NCBI GenBank assembly: GCA_045862995.1
Contig: BTVX01000015.1
Coordinates: forward strand, 17,259 to 81,258
Reading direction: 5' to 3'
Source: Chthonomonas sp.
Lineage (GTDB): Bacteria; Armatimonadota; Fimbriimonadia; Fimbriimonadales; Fimbriimonadaceae
Length of the DNA: 64,000 nt
Below are positions 1,702 through 36,719 of the stretch, piece after piece. The notes beneath the pieces were generated by a model, which was given only the letters and a program-made list of their open reading frames with translations, was not told the origin of the DNA and made no database searches. The translations under genes and the position numbers were made by a program. Numbering within the stretch: the first letter of the stretch is position 1; each line of letters starts with the position of its first letter.

Positions 1702-2931
1702 CTACCGCAGCACCGGAACGTGGTCGAACTTGCCGCCAAGCACCACGCCCGAATCGCCCGCGAGCCACTCGTCGAGCGCGGTGGCATACACCTGACGGAA
1801 GTCCACCTCGTGCCGCAGGTCGCCCCGATTGAGGTCGCCCAGATTCGGCAGGTTGCCGTGGATGCCGCCCTTCACGCCTCGCCCCACCAGGAACATGGGC
1901 GCGGCGGCGCCGTGGTCGGTGCCCATGCTGTTGTTCTCGTGAACGCGACGGCCGAACTCCGAGAACACGAGCACCAGCACCTGGTCGGCCTTGCCGAGCG
2001 CCTCCATCTCGCGCTGAAAGGCCAGCAGCCCATCGCCCAACCCCTTGAGCAGGTTGGCGTGCGCATCGGGTTGGCGCGCGTGGGTGTCGAAGCCGCCCGC
2101 GCTGAAGTAGACCAGTTTGGTCGCTGGCGAAGCGCCGATCAGGTGCGCAATCTGCTGGAAGCCCCGTCCGAACGCATCGGTGCCGTACGTCTCTTTAGGG
2201 GCGTACGTGCCGAGCCGCTTCTCCAGTTCGCTCATCGCGTCGAGCGCCGTTTTGCTGGCATCTTGCACGGCTCGGATGGCCGAACCCGATGCCGCGGCAT
2301 CGCCTTGAATCTGCCGCAACCGGCGCTCGGCGTCCGGGTCGCCGACCAACTGCTGGATGTCGGCCAAGCTGGCAAAGCACGGAACGCTGGCGTTCTTGGC
2401 GTTCAGCGCCAAAGGTTTCTCAGTAGACAAGCCCAGAGCCACCACGGGGTTGAGCGGCTTGGACTGCAGTTGCAGGTCGAAGTGGCGGCCTAGCCACCCC
2501 GTCGTGAACGTGCCGTCGGGACTGGCCGTGTGCCAGATGTCCATGCTCTTGAAGTGCGAGCGATTGGGATCGGGATAGCCCACGTTCTGGACGATCGCGA
2601 CCTTCCCCTCGTCGTAGAGCGACTTCATGCCGGTCAGCGAGGGATGCAGGCCCAAGCGGGCGTCAAGCGGCAGAACCTGGCTTTCGGCGATGGCGAGTTG
2701 AGGCCGCGCCGCATAGTAGCGGGTGTCCGAAAACGGCACAACCGTGTTCAGGCCATCGTTTCCGCCGCTGAGTTGGCAGATGACCAAGATGCGGTCGGAC
2801 AGGGGCTTCAATCCCCGAACCTCGCGCACCAAGTCCGCCTGCGCCAAACGCGCGATCCATGCGGGCGTGGTCAATCCGACGGCGATCATGCCGCCTCGTT
2901 TCATCAAATCGCGTCTGCTGATGTCGCTCAT
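1702..2931 (-). CDS. DUF1501 domain protein (sulfatase-like, Tat signal)
   Basis: 409-aa ORF with twin-arginine leader MSDISRRDLMKRGG. The C-terminal block VFSEFGRRVHENNSMGTDHGAAAPMFLVG is typical of DUF1501. Confidence 0.85.
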   Translation of the reverse strand: MSDISRRDLMKRGGMIAVGLTTPAWIARLAQADLVREVRGLKPLSDRILVICQLSGGNDGLNTVVPFSDTRYYAARPQLAIAESQVLPLDARLGLHPSLTGMKSLYDEGKVAIVQNVGYPDPNRSHFKSMDIWHTASPDGTFTTGWLGRHFDLQLQSKPLNPVVALGLSTEKPLALNAKNASVPCFASLADIQQLVGDPDAERRLRQIQGDAAASGSAIRAVQDASKTALDAMSELEKRLGTYAPKETYGTDAFGRGFQQIAHLIGASPATKLVYFSAGGFDTHARQPDAHANLLKGLGDGLLAFQREMEALGKADQVLVLVFSEFGRRVHENNSMGTDHGAAAPMFLVGRGVKGGIHGNLPNLGDLNRGDLRHEVDFRQVYATALDEWLAGDSGVVLGGKFDHVPVLR

Positions 2932-3051
2932 CGCTGCACCGGGGTAACCATTGTACGGCGAAATCGCCGCCGATGGGTGACCAGACGCTTCGAGTGCGCC
3001 CGGTGTTCAATCACGACCCGCGAACCAACGGCGAACCGGTACCATCGGGGC

Positions 3052-3279
3052 GTGGAACACCTCGGCAAAACGCTGGTCGGCGCAGGGCTGGTGTTGGTGC
3101 TCGCTGGCGGAATCCTCTGGGCGTTGCGCGACGTCAAGGGGCTGCCGCTCGGTCGGCTTCCCGGAGACTTCTCGGTCGAACGCGAGGGGTTCTCGTTCCA
3201 TGCGCCCATCGCCACGATGCTGCTGATCAGCGTCGCGCTGACCCTCGTCTTGAACCTCGCCTCGAGGTTCTTCCGATGA
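3052..3279 (+). CDS. DUF2905 family small membrane protein
   Basis: GTG start inside ORF 2530..3279. The 75-aa product VEHLGKTLVGAGLVLVLAGGILWAL..LPGDF..EREGFSFHAPIATMLLISVALTLVLN matches the DUF2905 pattern. Its stop overlaps the next ATG (ATGA). Confidence 0.7.
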   Translation: MEHLGKTLVGAGLVLVLAGGILWALRDVKGLPLGRLPGDFSVEREGFSFHAPIATMLLISVALTLVLNLASRFFR

Positions 3280-3965
3280 GCCTCCGCGTCATTACGTTCG
3301 ATTGCGCCAACACGCTGGTCGAAACGTCGTGGGATTACGCCGAGCACGCGATGGCCTGTCTCGACCGCTTGGGCGTCGCCACGGACCCCGAGTGGCCGAT
3401 CGTGTATCGGCGGCTGCTCATGCGATCCTGGCCCGAGTATCGCGAGATGAACCAAGCCCGTCCGCACGAAGCCGACGCGTGGTGGCTCGCGTTCACCCAG
3501 GTGTTTCTCGAGCATGCCGGCCTTTCGCGCGACCTCGCCCCCTCCCTGATGGAGGCGTCCGAAGACCTCCTGTACCGCAAAGACAAGGTGGACTTTCGGG
3601 TATTTGACGACATCGTGGAGACCCTGGCGGCCCTGCGCGAGCGCGGCTTCCGCCTGGGCGTGATCAGCAACTGGGACTACTCGCTTGGCAAGGTCCTGGA
3701 GTCGCGCGGCCTGTCGGAGCACTTCGACGTGGTCACGGCATCGCTGGTTTTGGGCGTCGAGAAGCCCGACCCGCTCATCTTCTCGCACACGTTGGAACTC
3801 CTGGGCGCGACCCCGGCCGAGGCGCTGCACATCGGAGACAACCCGCTGGACGACTTCCACGGGGCGCGGTCCGCAGGACTCCGGGCGCTGCTGGTGGACC
3901 GCTCGCAGCCGCGTTCGACCGATGTGATGCTGCACGATATGCGCGAGTTGCTCAACCGCGTGTAA
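3276..3965 (+). CDS. HAD-superfamily hydrolase (subfamily IA)
   Basis: Internal ATG of ORF 2973..3965. Motif I is ITFDCANTLV, with downstream ..GVISNWD.. and ..HIGDNPLDDFHGARSAGLRALLV (HAD motifs III/IV). Confidence 0.85.
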   Translation: MSLRVITFDCANTLVETSWDYAEHAMACLDRLGVATDPEWPIVYRRLLMRSWPEYREMNQARPHEADAWWLAFTQVFLEHAGLSRDLAPSLMEASEDLLYRKDKVDFRVFDDIVETLAALRERGFRLGVISNWDYSLGKVLESRGLSEHFDVVTASLVLGVEKPDPLIFSHTLELLGATPAEALHIGDNPLDDFHGARSAGLRALLVDRSQPRSTDVMLHDMRELLNRV

Positions 3966-22757: not shown

Positions 22758-23963
22758 TCACGGCGTGCGGCACCACGGGAGCCCGTAACCGTACTTCCAA
22801 CTCTGCGGCAACATGCGGTCCGAGGCCGTCTTGAGCGGGTTCAAGCTCGCCGAAGCCGCCACCCTGGCCGTCAGGTCGCCGACGTGCAGGTTCTCCATGC
22901 GCCGGCCCACGGTGTGCGTACCCAGCATCGCCAAGTCGAACCGTGTGAACCGCCTACCAGCCAAATCAAACGTGGCATAGGCCATCATCCGGCCCTCGTA
23001 AGAATCCTTGCACCACTCCGAATCGGCACGCATGGTGTACGTGCCCTCGATCTCGAGGTCCATCAGGTCGCCGCGCCGGGCAACCACCCGCGAAACCGTC
23101 TTGCCGCCCACGATGTGCTCCTCCCACCACGCGCTCTGGCCCGCCTGATGGTGGCTGAGCAACACCAGTCGCGTCCGCGCGGGGCCCGTGACCTCGGTCG
23201 CTCGCCCGTCGGCGGGAATAAACGCGCGCCATTCGCTCGGTTTGAACCACAACCGGTCCAAATGGAAGTACATCGGGTGCCGCTGGTCGAACGAGGTCAT
23301 GCCTTTGAACGGTAGCCCCCGGCTCGAAATGCGGAGGTCCAGTGTGCCCTCGGGCTTGGAGAACTGCTCCTCTTCGAACCGCATGCGGTCCTTGTCGCCC
23401 AAGGGTTGGGCCAGCCGTCGCTCGGCCGGGTTCAGCCTGGAATAGGCTGCTTTGGCTTCGCGCATGCCTTGCAGGATGCCGTCGGCGTCGGGGTCGGGCC
23501 AACCCTTGTTGAGGTAGCCCAACGATGCCCCGGCGGACGACATCGCGTACAGACCCTGCTGCGGCAACCCTCGGGTCCCTTTCGAGAGGATGCGCCATTC
23601 GCCCGTCTCGCGTTGGCCGCGGTCGCGGTAGCGGACGTCGTCGCCGGCGTAGACGATGAAGTTCTCTCGCGCGTAGGCGAGAAGATCGGGGCGAGTCCAG
23701 ACAAACTGCCTGGTCTTGACGCCGTTCTGTCAGCAGTGGCCGCGCGGATCGCCGAAGTACATCCAGAGCAGGATGGGCTTGTCGGCTTCTCGCGCGGCGT
23801 TGATCGCCTCGTGGATGCTGCTCTTCCAATCCAGGCTCATGAACCCGAGATCCGAGGGGCTCGGCTGAGCGTAGGCCTGCACCTGGGCGAACGTCGAAGC
23901 GTTCAACTGGGTGGGCGGCGATACGGTCTGGCTCGCCAAGGCAAGGAGCAACGCGGTCAGCAT
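22758..23963 (-). CDS. Secreted thioredoxin-fold protein interrupted by one in-frame TGA (23730-23732): candidate selenoprotein, otherwise a disrupted gene
   Basis: ORFs 23730..23963 (MLTALLLALASQ..ADKPILLWMYFGDPRGHC-TGA) and 22758..23567 share one frame. The bridge between them has no stop and reads QNGVKTRQFVWTRPDLLAYARENFIVYAGDD, continuing a Thioredoxin_7-like pattern. Confidence 0.5.
23690..23723 (-). promoter_or_regulatory. SECIS-like hairpin starting 7 nt after the in-frame UGA
   Basis: RNA GGCGUCAAGACCAGGCAGUUUGUCUGGACUCGCC folds into 3+3+4 bp. It has a 2-nt bulge, one A.G mismatch and a 10-nt apical loop CCAGGCAGUU(U) containing GG. Confidence 0.35.
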
Positions 23964-23974
23964 CGGATGCACGT

Positions 23975-25183
23975 TTAGACGAGCTTCTTGAACTGGTGTT
24001 TCCCGACTCGCAGCACTTTTCCGCTCAAATCGCCGAGCGCGAAGTGTGCGGTCATGTCGTTGACCTTCTCGCCGTCCAAGCTCACCGCGCCCGCTTCGAT
24101 GAGTCTGCGCGCCTTGCTGTTGGATTCGGCCATGCCGAGCGCGGCGATCAATGCGGCCAGGGGCACCCCTCGGTCGCCGTTCAACTCGGCGGGAATCTCG
24201 GCCTCTTCGGCTTCGACGGGCTGACGCTTCTTGCTGAACGTCTCCAAGAAGTAGCGGTCGGCGGCTTCGGCGGCCTCGGCGTCGTGGTACAGCGTCACAA
24301 TCTCCCGCGCCAGCCGCCGCTTGGCGTCGCGCGGGTTCATCGAACCGTCGGCGCACGCCTTCGTCATCGCGCCGATCTCGGCGAGCGGCACATCCGTGCA
24401 CAGCACGAACCAGTTCTCCAGGATCGCGTCCGGGATGGACATCGTCTTGCCGTACATGTCGTTCGGCGTATCCACCACCGAAACGTAGTTGCCCAGCGAC
24501 TGGGACATCTTCTCGACCCCGTCGGTCCCCACGAGCAACGGCATAAGCAGCACGACCTGCGGCTCCTGGCCGTACTGGTTCATCAGCGTGCGCCCGACCA
24601 GGTTGTTGAACTTCTGGTCGTTGCCGCCCAGCTCGACGTCGGCGTTGATCTGCACCGAATCGTAGCCCTGACACAGGGGATAGAGGATTTCGTGCAACGC
24701 GATCGGGCGGTTGTCGGTCCACCGCTTGGTGAAGTCGTCCCGCTCCATAATGCGGGCCACCGTGGTGCGCGAGGCGAGCCGGATCACGTCCTCGAACGTC
24801 ATCGCGCCGAGCCAGTCCCGGTTGAAGAAGATCTCGGTCTTGTCCGGGTCGAGGATCTTGTAGACCTGCTTGGTGACCGCATCAACGTTGGCCTGGACCT
24901 CTTCGCGGCTGAGTTGCTTGCGCGTTTTGCTCTTACCGCTCGGGTCGCCGATCTGGGCGGTGAAGTCGCCGATGATCAGGCAGGCCGTATGGCCGAGCCG
25001 CTGGAAGTCGCGAAGCTTGCGCAAGACGACCGCCCAGCCGAGCGTGACGTCCTTGGCCGTAGGGTCCACGCCGAGCTTGACGCGCAAAGGACGGCCGAGT
25101 TTGAGCTTGGCCGCCAGGTCTTCTTCGCTGATGATCTCGGTCGCGCCGCGACGCAAGATGTCGAGCTGTTGCTCGAGGGTCAT
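23975..25183 (-). CDS. tyrS: Tyrosyl-tRNA synthetase
   Basis: Internal ATG of ORF 23975..25543, MTLEQQLDILRRG.. HIGH-like GVDPTAKDVTLGW, ..GGNDQKFN.., KMSKS-like EKMSQSLGN, and a C-terminal S4 domain. Confidence 0.95.
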   Translation of the reverse strand: MTLEQQLDILRRGATEIISEEDLAAKLKLGRPLRVKLGVDPTAKDVTLGWAVVLRKLRDFQRLGHTACLIIGDFTAQIGDPSGKSKTRKQLSREEVQANVDAVTKQVYKILDPDKTEIFFNRDWLGAMTFEDVIRLASRTTVARIMERDDFTKRWTDNRPIALHEILYPLCQGYDSVQINADVELGGNDQKFNNLVGRTLMNQYGQEPQVVLLMPLLVGTDGVEKMSQSLGNYVSVVDTPNDMYGKTMSIPDAILENWFVLCTDVPLAEIGAMTKACADGSMNPRDAKRRLAREIVTLYHDAEAAEAADRYFLETFSKKRQPVEAEEAEIPAELNGDRGVPLAALIAALGMAESNSKARRLIEAGAVSLDGEKVNDMTAHFALGDLSGKVLRVGKHQFKKLV

Positions 25184-25218: not shown

Positions 25219-25731
25219 TCAGGCGGTGAGAACGCAGCCGCACTCGAGACGGATCTCGACAGGCCCGACGTGCTTGACCGACCCACCGCGCCGAAAGTGG
25301 TGGACGATGCCCGTCTCCGGGTCGGCGACGACCACGTCGAGCACGCCGTTGCTCAAGTAGAGCGGTGCGCCGACGTCGAGGTCCTTGGCCTCGAAGCCGG
25401 GCGAGAGCACCTCGACGACCGCCTTGGGCACCAAACGCAACGCGTGACGCTCGGGAGCCGGCCGCTCGCAAAGGATCATCAGATCGGGCCGCTTGAGCGA
25501 GCCGTCGGGCAGCAACACGTAGGTGTCGGCCAACGTGTAGCACCCGCAGCCCGAGGTACCGGGTGCCTGGCCGATGCTCCGGTCAATGTCCCGGACCTTC
25601 ATCTGGTGCACGGGCGAGGGCAAGAACTCCCATGTGGGGGTGCCCTGACCCAGTTCCAGCTTGACCCCGACGTCTTCGGCGGCGACCAGCCGCTCGAAGA
25701 GGTCTTGGATGCCGGTCTGTTCTGTGATCAC
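25219..25731 (-). CDS. Uma2-family (DUF820) restriction-endonuclease-fold protein
   Basis: 170 aa with ..PDLMILCERP.. and ..AVVEVLSPG....D...K...Y...GV, characteristic of Uma2. Confidence 0.7.
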   Translation of the reverse strand: MITEQTGIQDLFERLVAAEDVGVKLELGQGTPTWEFLPSPVHQMKVRDIDRSIGQAPGTSGCGCYTLADTYVLLPDGSLKRPDLMILCERPAPERHALRLVPKAVVEVLSPGFEAKDLDVGAPLYLSNGVLDVVVADPETGIVHHFRRGGSVKHVGPVEIRLECGCVLTA

Positions 25732-25777: not shown

Positions 25778-26323
25778 TCACCCTTCCAGAGGTATCCCGT
25801 TCGCGTCGTTCATCGAGCCGGTCAGGATTCGAACCAGGTCCACCAGAGCCCAGATGCCCGTGATGATGCCGCCATAGCCACACGTCAGGACCGTGATCAG
25901 GGCCATCGCGACGCCCGTGTTCGTATCCCCAAGGTAGAACCGATGGACCCCGAAGGCCCCGGCAAAGAACGCCAAAGCCGCAGCCACCCACCGATTTCGC
26001 CGTCCCAGCGAAGAAGCCAGCGGGTTCGAGCTGGGCACCTGAACGTAGTTGTGAACTTGGACGATCGGCGTTCCGGGCGGCACGTTCGGGGGCAGCGCCG
26101 TCACCGTGGGCGGAGCGATCGGAGGCGGAATCGCGGCGAGCAGGTCGGCCAACTCGGGGAGGTTTTGGGCTTGTACCTGGGTCTGGGTGTAGGCGTCCAC
26201 GAGGATCGTCGTCCGCAGAATGCGCCCTTGCGAGCACCACTGCCTCAGGGTCGCGGTGTCGGCAGGGCCGTAATGCTGGCCATCGGGACCGTAGACGTAA
26301 TACACCTGTATTTCAGGATACAC
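25778..26323 (-). CDS. GYF_2 (DUF4339) plus TM2 domain membrane protein
   Basis: N-terminal YYVYGPDGQHYGPADTATLRQWCSQGRI (GYF-like), a Pro-rich linker, and a C-terminal TM2 domain (FFAGAFGVHRFYLGD...GIWALVDL). Confidence 0.75.
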   Translation of the reverse strand: MYPEIQVYYVYGPDGQHYGPADTATLRQWCSQGRILRTTILVDAYTQTQVQAQNLPELADLLAAIPPPIAPPTVTALPPNVPPGTPIVQVHNYVQVPSSNPLASSLGRRNRWVAAALAFFAGAFGVHRFYLGDTNTGVAMALITVLTCGYGGIITGIWALVDLVRILTGSMNDANGIPLEG

Positions 26324-34946: not shown

Positions 34947-36719
34947 ATGGCAATGACTCGGATGCCCATGGTCCAGTACCTCGTTCAGAAGGGGTTGCTG
35001 GCCAAAGAGCAGTTGGACGAGGCCCTCAAGGTCCAGCAACAAACGAAGAACCCAGATTTGGGTCGCATTCTCGTCGAACTCAACTTCGTCGGCGAACGCG
35101 AGGTCGTCGAAGCCCGAGCCCAAGAGGCCGGGATGCCGTTCGTTGACCTCGACCGGACGGAGATCGAGACCTCGGCGACCAACGTCGTCCCCGAGCGGAT
35201 CGCCAAGCTCCACACGGTGATCCCCGTCAAAAAAGAGGGGATGCAACTGCTCTTGGCCATGGCCAACCCGCGCAACATCCAGGCGCTGGACGACGTCAAG
35301 CTCGCTTCGGGCTGCCGCGTCGTGCCGGCCATGGCCGTGCCGGGCGCCATCGAAGACGCCATCCGCAAATCCTACGCGGGCTCGTCCCCCGCGGCGGGCG
35401 GTGGCGGCGGAGCCGCCGCGCTCCAGAGCAACTTCACCGCCGACATCCGCCAGGCCATCGCGACGGCAGGCGTCGCCGCCAGCGTCAACCAGCTTCCGGA
35501 CGAAGCCGTGGACGATGGCGACGAGCAGATGGCCGATCAGGCGCCCATCATCCGCTTGGCCAACGCCCTCATCCAGCAGGCCATCGTGGACCGAGCCTCG
35601 GACATCCACGTCGAACCCCAGCAGCGCCACCTGCGCATCCGGTACCGCATTGACGGCGTGCTCATGGAGGCCATGACCGTCCCCAAGAACCTCCAGGCCC
35701 CGCTCATCAGCCGCTTGAAGATCATGGCGGACATGAACATCGCCGAGCGACGCGTCCCGCAGGACGGTCGCATCGAGGTCCGCACGAACCAAAAAGACTT
35801 CGACCTGCGCGTCAGCGCGATCCCTACGCCCTTCGGCGAAAAGATCGTCATGCGCATCCTCGACAAGTCGAGCATCATGATCGGCTTGAACAAGCTGGGG
35901 TTCACCGAGGAGAACCAGGCGATCATCGAGGAACTCACGTCGCAGCCGAACGGCATGTTCCTCTGCACGGGACCCACGGGTTCCGGCAAGACCACGACCC
36001 AGTATTCGGTCCTCAACAAGCTCAACACGATCGGCGTCAACATCCTCACGGTCGAAGACCCGATCGAATACCAACTCGGCGGCATCGCCCAGGTCGGCGT
36101 GAACCGCAAGGCGGGTCTGTCGTTCGCCACGGCCCTCCGCGCCTTTCTGCGACAAGACCCCGACATCATCATGGTCGGCGAAATGCGCGACTTGGAAACG
36201 GCGGAAATCGCCATCGAATCGTCGCTCACGGGCCACTTGGTCTTGTCCACGCTCCACACGAACGACGCCCCGTCCGCCACGCTCCGTATGATTGACATGG
36301 GCGTCGAGCCCTACCTGATCGCGGCCACGGTCATCGGCGTGTTGGCTCAACGACTCGCCCGCCGCCTCTGCCCGAACTGCAAGGAACCGTACGAAATCCC
36401 CGTCTCGGACCTCGTCCGCTTCGGCATGAAGATGGAAGCCGGGGACGACATGGACCGCTTGGTCCAAATCTATCGCCCCGTCGGCTGCGACAACTGCCGA
36501 GGCACGGGCTACCGAGGCCGAACGGGCATCCACGAACTCATGCTGGTCAACGACGAAATCGCCGAAATGGTCGTCCGGCGCGCGCCGCTCGCCGATATCC
36601 GCGACGCCGCCAAGGCCAACGGCATGAAGGAACTCAAGGAAGACGGACTCGGCAAGGTGCTGGCCGGAGTGACCGACCCGGCCGAAGTCCGACGCGTCGT
36701 CTTCACCGCCGGCCACTGA
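34947..36719 (+). CDS. pilB: Type IV pilus assembly ATPase
   Basis: GGAAGGAG RBS. N-terminal GSPII_E-N domain, Walker A GPTGSGKTTT, Asp box, and the tetracysteine CPNC..CDNCRGTGY. Confidence 0.93.
   Translation: MAMTRMPMVQYLVQKGLLAKEQLDEALKVQQQTKNPDLGRILVELNFVGEREVVEARAQEAGMPFVDLDRTEIETSATNVVPERIAKLHTVIPVKKEGMQLLLAMANPRNIQALDDVKLASGCRVVPAMAVPGAIEDAIRKSYAGSSPAAGGGGGAAALQSNFTADIRQAIATAGVAASVNQLPDEAVDDGDEQMADQAPIIRLANALIQQAIVDRASDIHVEPQQRHLRIRYRIDGVLMEAMTVPKNLQAPLISRLKIMADMNIAERRVPQDGRIEVRTNQKDFDLRVSAIPTPFGEKIVMRILDKSSIMIGLNKLGFTEENQAIIEELTSQPNGMFLCTGPTGSGKTTTQYSVLNKLNTIGVNILTVEDPIEYQLGGIAQVGVNRKAGLSFATALRAFLRQDPDIIMVGEMRDLETAEIAIESSLTGHLVLSTLHTNDAPSATLRMIDMGVEPYLIAATVIGVLAQRLARRLCPNCKEPYEIPVSDLVRFGMKMEAGDDMDRLVQIYRPVGCDNCRGTGYRGRTGIHELMLVNDEIAEMVVRRAPLADIRDAAKANGMKELKEDGLGKVLAGVTDPAEVRRVVFTAGH

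Follow-up and report, generated by a model that had tools for sequence, protein, structure and literature searches.

On the minus strand of the window, by which we mean the whole 64,000-nucleotide (nt) stretch of Chthonomonas sp. DNA that was analyzed (Fimbriimonadaceae, Armatimonadota; contig BTVX01000015.1, positions 17,259 to 81,258), a putative selenoprotein gene occupies positions 22758..23963. A preliminary description had noted two open reading frames (ORFs; 23730..23963 and 22758..23567) that lie in one frame and are separated by a single TGA, and had proposed that this codon is read as selenocysteine (Sec) in a secreted protein with a thioredoxin fold. Translation confirmed the layout: starting from the ATG at 23963, the minus-strand frame spans 401 codons, with one internal TGA (23732..23730), and ends at a second TGA (22760..22758), while the 162-nt bridge between the two listed ORFs (23568..23729) is free of stops. 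The peptide before the internal TGA is ...ADKPILLWMYFGDPRGHC, and it continues behind the codon, in the same frame, as QNGVKTRQFVWTRPDLLAYARENFIVYAGDD... The proposed Sec codon (23730..23732) directly follows a Cys codon (TGC) and precedes CAG, giving the local peptide G-H-C-U-Q-N-G, in which Cys and Sec are residues 77 and 78 of 401. In GenBank, where an alternative start (GTG 23972) is used, the two halves were deposited as separate hypothetical proteins, GMV89106.1 (N-terminal part) and GMV89105.1 (C-terminal part), with locus tags AMXMBFR81. The same gene architecture was found in 25 homologous loci, and we consider it likely that the locus encodes one exported, thioredoxin-like protein of approximately 400 residues, whose internal UGA is read as selenocysteine with the help of a selenocysteine insertion sequence (SECIS) in the mRNA.

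The window has a G+C content of 64.5%, and TGA is its most frequent stop codon, ending 23 of the 41 coding-like ORFs, including the one at 36717-36719 and the selenoprotein gene itself, whose true terminator (22758..22760) lacks a hairpin context. The codon is therefore not reassigned genome-wide, as had been stated from the outset, albeit partly with a weak example: the TGA at 3277-3279 closes a doubtful ORF (2530..3279, plus strand) that overlaps better candidates on both strands (2973..3965, plus, and 1702..2931, minus).

When the read-through product was compared with 5.8 billion proteins, 34 homologs were retrieved, all of which cover only the C-terminal 63 to 80% of the query and none of which crosses the TGA column, a pattern typical of selenoproteins cut short by gene callers. 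With the N-terminal 136 residues as the query, only two short fragments were recovered. The comparison was made on DNA, namely, that of three database homologs and then of 21 loci from GTDB species genomes, and the resulting window clade consists of 25 homologous loci plus the window. The 21 GTDB loci belong to Fimbriimonadaceae/Armatimonadota, save for two evidently misbinned contigs. Complete or near-complete genomes with the gene include Armatimonadetes bacterium Uphvl-Ar1 (CP021423.1), the 2.83-Mb contig JAHBTE010000001.1, and GCA_053550695.1. The Fimbriimonadaceae gene also turned up on contigs filed under the unrelated names "Methanoregulaceae archaeon" (JADZEW010000026), "Methyloversatilis discipulorum" (CALRVI020000003), and "Nitrospirae bacterium" (MBZ0214863/4), which are probably binning errors; two of these correspond to loci L007 and L012.

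Within the window clade, where protein identity to the window ranges from 96% down to approximately 41%, TGY-TGA-CAR is present at the same column in all 26 loci, and the surrounding peptide is near-invariant (WMYFGDPRG-x-C-*-QNG-[VA]-KTRQFVW). The codons of these conserved residues do vary, with GAC or GAT for D-6, four different codons for R-4, CAG or CAA for Q+1, AAC or AAT for N+2, and AAG or AAA for K+5. Such synonymous variation at conserved residues on both sides of the TGA reveals purifying selection on the protein and, therefore, translation of both sides.

More distant relatives were reached with a profile of the C-terminal part, which, when searched against 1.84 billion cluster representatives, matched 536 proteins (representative clusters) at an E value of ≤1e-3. 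Most of the distant ones are approximately 300 to 330 residues long, and they start with, or immediately behind, the R-x-x-V-W segment that follows the Sec column, never before it. DNA of two such matches encodes ...MNGHPL[AG]C-T-TGA-NNGV... at the same column, 11 residues past the LLW strand, the same distance as in the window. A scan of metagenome contigs, unbiased regarding the stop since all of its motifs were C-terminal, identified 322 relatives, and TGA was present in each of the 82 loci examined (L026 to L107, e.g., L027:2689-3969; two of them had been found via the profile search), which originate from soil, TARA, deep-ocean, and GOS metagenomes. The motif of this sister clade is C-T-U-N-N-G (...MNGHPLGC-T-U-[NG]-NG), i.e., C-x-U as opposed to the C-U (H-C-U-Q-N-G) of the window clade. 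Planctomycete-type PSCyt1/PSCyt2 proteins are encoded beside some of the loci, and marine loci are flanked by a gene for a secreted endonuclease with a weak, subthreshold match to a type IX secretion system (T9SS) sorting domain; from these neighbors, the clade would appear to be distributed over several phyla.

Altogether, TGA occupies the homologous column in 108 of 108 loci, and as the preliminary description had anticipated, homologs are single frames with TGA or, in one relative discussed below, Cys (TGT) at this position. Gene callers and GenBank annotate the TGA as a genuine stop, and all 34 database homologs of the C-terminal part are listed as separate proteins; the locus would then be a pair of genes (for a 77-residue peptide and a 269-residue protein) or a pseudogene, or else the TGA would be a mistake of sequencing or assembly. 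However, since 108 independent assemblies share this TGA, a sequencing error is excluded, as is recent pseudogenization. Moreover, nowhere is the protein better conserved than in the stretch that runs from the TGA to the earliest potential start (55 codons in the window), which, given its synonymous variation, is translated. A restart is not conserved anywhere: in the window, the first candidate codons are indeed just a TTG, 55 codons downstream, and an ATG, 63 codons downstream, and the distance to the first possible restart codon varies from 9 to 72 codons in the window clade and from 4 to 151 codons in the sister clade. Finally, four relatives (P0203, P0194, P0180, and P0123) run through the region as uninterrupted single chains, and the thioredoxin-like fold described below needs both halves. 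A real stop between two genes is thus already contradicted by the data, and we regard this option, in all of its variants, as scarcely credible.

A hairpin resembling a SECIS was expected between positions 23650 and 23735 and was found at 23713..23697, with a 5' arm CCAGGCA (23713-23707), a GUU loop (23706-23704), and a 3' arm UGUCUGG (23703-23697). Its 7-bp stem has a predicted free energy of -7.7 kcal/mol, a stability reached by none of 200 shuffled sequences, and the loop begins 23 nt after the UGA. When flanks are included (43 nt), the minimum free energy (MFE) becomes -14.7 kcal/mol (z = -1.76), and a lower stem might be formed between GGCG (23723-23720) and CGCC (23693-23690), extending the UGA-SECIS region to 23690..23732, according to single-sequence prediction only. 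For bacterial SECIS (bSECIS) elements, an apical loop of 3 to 9 nt with a G among the first two bases, an upper stem of 4 to 16 bp, a UGA-loop distance of 16 to 37 nt, and an MFE of ≤-7.5 kcal/mol have been put forward (PMC13188914), and the window hairpin falls within all four bounds. A search of the window with Rfam (at the gathering threshold) and ARAGORN returned no match.

Every member of the window clade contains the hairpin, as CCAGRCA-GUU-UGUCUGG, starting 19 nt past the U of the UGA. The stem is 98% paired, compared to 0.7 to 44% with slid partners, and the one variable position is a G-U/A-U switch. While the normalized synonymous entropy averages 0.76 across 165 conserved degenerate codon columns, it is zero in only four of them, three of which are located inside the hairpin (ACC +6, CAG +8, and GTC +10). 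Additionally, Arg +7 is encoded by AGR in 24 of 24 sequences, even though AGR makes up just 10.8% of the Arg codons in the window, and the rare codons AGG and TTT (the latter representing only 14% of the window's Phe codons) are retained in the hairpin. Judging from these frozen synonymous sites, selection acts on the hairpin RNA itself.

In the sister clade, the corresponding hairpin (GCGGGCC-GGN-GGUCCGU) has its loop 19 nt after the UGA, with a 7- to 8-bp stem, a GGN or GUN sequence in the loop, and a free energy of -8.8 to -12.2 kcal/mol. Among 55 distinct sequences, 89% of the positions are paired, compared to 28 to 57% with slid partners; three pairs have changed on both sides (e.g., one pair reads A-U instead of G-C in six sequences), and the covariation score was reached by only 8 of 500 shuffles. 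The two clades, therefore, have different stem sequences but share the same architecture, at nearly the same spacing.

These observations also bear on the idea that the UGA is read independently of SelB, by a near-cognate or suppressor tRNA (for Trp, Cys, Arg, or Gly), with the hairpin merely slowing termination. In bacteria, termination is weak at a UGA followed by C, and the base after the UGA (23729 in the window) is a C in all 26 window-clade loci; small residues (Ala and Gly) at the column in relatives lacking Sec would fit such a mechanism as well. The C, however, may need nothing but protein constraint, since codon +1 always encodes Gln (CAR), and in the sister clade, this base is A or G instead. 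Besides, both clades display a specific bSECIS geometry, with a G as the first base of a 3-nt loop and a spacing of 19 to 23 nt, and leaky read-through would produce mostly truncated, nonfunctional protein from a gene that is under strong purifying selection and whose UGA column lies at the active site, beside a conserved Cys. All in all, we deem read-through of this kind very unlikely.

The only Cys-form relative that we found, P0180, reads ...NGNPGGC-T-C-MNG; its codon at the column is TGT, and a hairpin is missing from the equivalent location, which argues that the hairpin tracks the UGA rather than the protein fold. The GR-R-SVW/KTRQFVW peptide is not conserved in this protein. P0180 does illustrate that Cys at the column is chemically viable, and the main rival to selenocysteine is, accordingly, SECIS-dependent recoding of the UGA as Cys, yielding H-C-C-Q, by a tRNA-ReC-like tRNA (SelC*, shaped like tRNA-Sec but charged with Cys). 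Such tRNAs, which read SECIS-linked UGA as Cys, were reported beside canonical selC in five of five Armatimonadota genomes with UXXU-type hydrogenases (PMC13582414), and sequence data do not separate the insertion of Sec from that of Cys. On the other hand, those genomes were not shown to be of Fimbriimonadaceae and also carried canonical selC, and the sister clade resides in other phyla. Above all, if the product contained Cys, decay of the codon to TGY would be expected to be frequent, yet 108 of 108 loci across several phyla keep both TGA and hairpin, and the Cys form is limited to one singleton. We therefore rate Cys insertion as unlikely and prefer selenocysteine as the inserted residue.

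With regard to the fold, the layout of Thioredoxin_7 that had been recognized by eye was supported by structure prediction, but not by a sequence match above the Pfam threshold: residues 45 to 115 match PF13899 with an E value of 7.8e-4 and 20 bits, versus a gathering threshold of 27, and relative P0194 scores 14.9 bits. In fact, no Pfam or NCBIfam model reaches its threshold for the window protein, and none covers the family. An AlphaFold2 model of the full-length relative P0203 (59 aligned sequences; predicted local distance difference test [pLDDT] score, 89.8; predicted template modeling [pTM] score, 0.88) shows a thioredoxin-like arrangement of the N-terminal ~170 residues, with human AGR3 (3PH9) as the best PDB match in Foldseek (probability, 1.00; TM score, 0.61 on the target). 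The model places the Sec column, whose residue in P0203 is A72, directly ahead of helix alpha1, in a loop preceded by strand 58-63 and followed by helix 74-84; this is the classical active-site position of the thioredoxin fold, at which ordinary thioredoxins have CxxC. Since the modeled fold draws on residues from both sides of the UGA, a 77-residue product would comprise half a fold, as had been argued in the preliminary description. On the window, this Thioredoxin_7/AGR-type domain corresponds to approximately residues 40 to 180 (roughly 23424..23846) and thus spans the UGA. No CxxC-type tetrad (nor a CxxU or UxxC one) is formed, there being no Cys, Ser, or Thr at position +3.

Behind the thioredoxin-like module, approximately residues 200 to 401 (roughly 22761..23366) form a beta-rich domain that is conserved across the superfamily, including the motifs GWPDPD, TLDLR, and DRLWFKPSE. 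A model of window residues 79 to 401 (pLDDT, 90.6) has the same order of secondary-structure elements as that of P0203. Foldseek produced no significant PDB match for the C-terminal domain; similarities to START, LIMP-2, OmpA, and LmcA were weak, and we dismissed them as noise. The domain also occurs in fusions, with a Ser/Thr kinase and Kelch repeats (P0123), with an FGE-sulfatase and planctomycete PSD/PSCyt domains (P0139), and with a PQQ beta-propeller (P0170). Since P0139 and P0170 both begin directly behind the Sec column, they may be truncated selenoproteins themselves, whereas the N-terminal module of P0123 has an Asp at the column and no Cys nearby, having lost both Cys and Sec.

Taken together, we propose the following sequence of events. 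Translation would begin at the ATG (or GTG) right downstream of the tyrosyl-tRNA synthetase gene tyrS and arrive at the UGA at 23732..23730, where the stem-loop 19 to 35 nt downstream (CCAGGCA-GUU-UGUCUGG) would act as a bacterial SECIS and recruit SelB with Sec-tRNA(Sec). After the insertion of Sec, translation would proceed to the TGA at 22760..22758, giving a single polypeptide of ~42 kDa. The Cys-Sec pair most likely cycles between a selenol/thiol and a selenenylsulfide state or binds a soft metal or metalloid: a partner Cys at position -1 (window clade) or -2 (sister clade), and not at +3 or -3, might allow Sec to close a tight selenenylsulfide ring or to join the Cys in a two-ligand site for a soft metal or metalloid, and the near absence of Cys forms suggests a chemistry poorly supported by sulfur. 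The beta-rich C-terminal domain may supply a substrate or ligand site and, probably, specificity.

Several points weigh against this proposal. First, neither the window nor the ~0.8 Mb of DNA around the loci (109 loci with ~10-kb flanks, too little sequence to be informative) contained selA, selB, selD, or tRNA-Sec, as judged by tblastn with Escherichia coli SelA, SelB, and SelD sequences and by ARAGORN. Cultured Fimbriimonadaceae are aerobes, among which the use of Sec is less common, and our literature search retrieved no paper linking Fimbriimonas with selenocysteine. Some Armatimonadota with Sec-type hydrogenases are reported to carry canonical selC (PMC13582414). Second, just one Cys-form homolog was found, in a singleton cluster, and the residues in the other relatives without Sec, i.e., Ala (P0203), Gly (P0194), and Asp (P0123), are atypical for redox selenoproteins. 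Third, the full-length structural model is that of P0203, a relative only ~25% identical to the window protein. Finally, the 43-nt fold around the hairpin is only modestly better than its shuffles, and the hairpin of the window clade is nearly invariant and, as such, devoid of compensatory covariation, so that the case there is one of synonymous-site freezing.

As for the genomic surroundings, tyrS (23975..~25200, minus strand) ends with a TAA 11 nt before the selenoprotein start, and the alternative GTG start (23972) is located within those 11 nt (23964-23977). The two genes are probably cotranscribed, although this linkage is not kept in more distant homologous loci. Past tyrS, on the same strand, positions 25778-26323 and 25219-25731 contain, as judged by eye, two more ORFs, the former with a TM2-like membrane segment (…FFAGAFGVHRFYLGD…) and the latter of ~170 residues. 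The selenoprotein itself starts with a hydrophobic segment, MLTALLLALASQT (approximately 23925..23963), a probable export signal; similar hydrophobic N termini are present in homologs, and distant member L027 has a classical signal-like N terminus. Export is therefore probable on the basis of these N-terminal sequences. A gene neighborhood search revealed no partner gene conserved across the clades: an apparent neighbor cluster of 64 loci turned out to be the N-terminal part of the gene itself, and other clusters were shadow ORFs. In six marine loci (L052, L060, L063, L066, L080, and L081), a tRNA-Ser(CGA) gene was located 2 to 3 kb downstream of the selenoprotein gene.

Considering all of this, we lean, by a narrow margin, toward a broader interpretation, in which the window protein represents an unrecognized superfamily (at least 536 clusters at 50% identity) with near-obligate Sec, represented in Armatimonadota and in Planctomycete-type genomes, as well as in marine bacteria whose neighboring genes are of the T9SS type. 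This superfamily would combine an "inverted" redox or metal center with a new beta-domain, would have been missed by surveys requiring Sec/Cys pairs, and might even be a main reason why aerobic lineages of soil and water that are not seen as selenium users have retained the Sec machinery. Members examined are stored as an ORF of ~80 residues plus one of ~260 to 320 residues, or as the latter alone, and a family model would repair hundreds of such entries, while providing a selenoprotein marker for Armatimonadota and other understudied phyla. The case exposes a blind spot in discovery pipelines that rely on Sec/Cys pairs. Vicinal or near-vicinal Cys and Sec at a thioredoxin-fold active site, with almost no Cys-only versions, in turn, suggest a reaction that sulfur cannot perform, candidates being a low-potential selenenylsulfide and the capture of a soft metal or metalloid. 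The hairpin, with its 17-nt core, offers a compact natural SECIS for study, and if the lineage carries the Sec machinery, current catalogues would underestimate how far selenium use extends into aerobic bacteria of soil, wastewater, and pelagic waters.

How does the protein relate to known systems? Its best structural match and its best, albeit subthreshold, sequence match are AGR2/AGR3 and Thioredoxin_7 (PF13899), respectively. AGR proteins are eukaryotic proteins of the endoplasmic reticulum with a CxxS motif and no Sec, and, on an alignment read by eye, the loop that leads from strand beta1 to the active site has 4 to 5 more residues here than in Thioredoxin_7. With thioredoxin reductase, to whose GCUG dyad the site had been likened, and with the "CU" selenoproteins SaoL, SaoC, HgcA, MbdU, and KCU-star (PMC13188914, Table 1), the window clade shares the vicinal Cys-Sec dipeptide, which hints at a selenenylsulfide or at a site that binds a soft metal. 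The analogy with thioredoxin reductase is loose, though, since the larger sister clade has C-x-U (C-T-U), and since the dyad is internal to a thioredoxin fold instead of penultimate on a flexible C-terminal tail. None of the models for these families gave a match.

The VPGUxxT family (NF041382/NF041383) is alike in size (~290 to 350 residues) and in having an N-terminal, Sec-containing, thioredoxin-like module, and it shows faint similarity (E value of 0.25 for the window protein and 0.0068 for P0194). We nevertheless ruled out membership, with scores of 10.6 bits versus 350 (window) and 16.1 versus 275 (P0194) and with motif VPGUxxT set against HCUQNG/CTUNNG. GOS_A of Zhang and Gladyshev (2008) comprises 2 Sec and 155 Cys forms, having come from a GOS pipeline that required Sec/Cys pairs (PMC2398784, Table 4), a requirement that plausibly explains why the present family, which does reside in GOS data (L101), went unreported. 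Identity with GOS_A was rejected on the opposite profile found here (108 Sec forms and 1 Cys form); the two are set apart by profile and not by a comparison of sequences. Candidates in a Planctomycete S9 table gave no clear match either, and a 2026 catalogue of 119 prokaryotic selenoprotein families, nearly every entry of which is tied to a domain model, lists none with such a motif and architecture (PMC13188914).

The closest parallel is provided by the bacterial thioredoxin-fold selenoproteins with a SECIS in the coding region (Trx, thiol:disulfide interchange protein, DsbA-like, DsbG-like, and Trx7/PDZ; PMC13188914, Table 1). Like those, the window protein has its UGA in the active-site loop, with a hairpin right downstream that carries a G as the first base of a small loop, and it is probably exported and has been truncated at the UGA in annotation. 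Unlike them, it has its partner Cys 1 or, in the sister clade, 2 residues N-terminal to Sec, with no CxxU/UxxC tetrad; it contains a beta-rich C-terminal domain of ~200 residues without known relatives; and Cys forms are nearly absent. We therefore describe it as a new family among the bacterial thioredoxin-fold selenoproteins, unusual in its inverted C-U/C-x-U center, its near-obligate Sec, and its new C-terminal domain.

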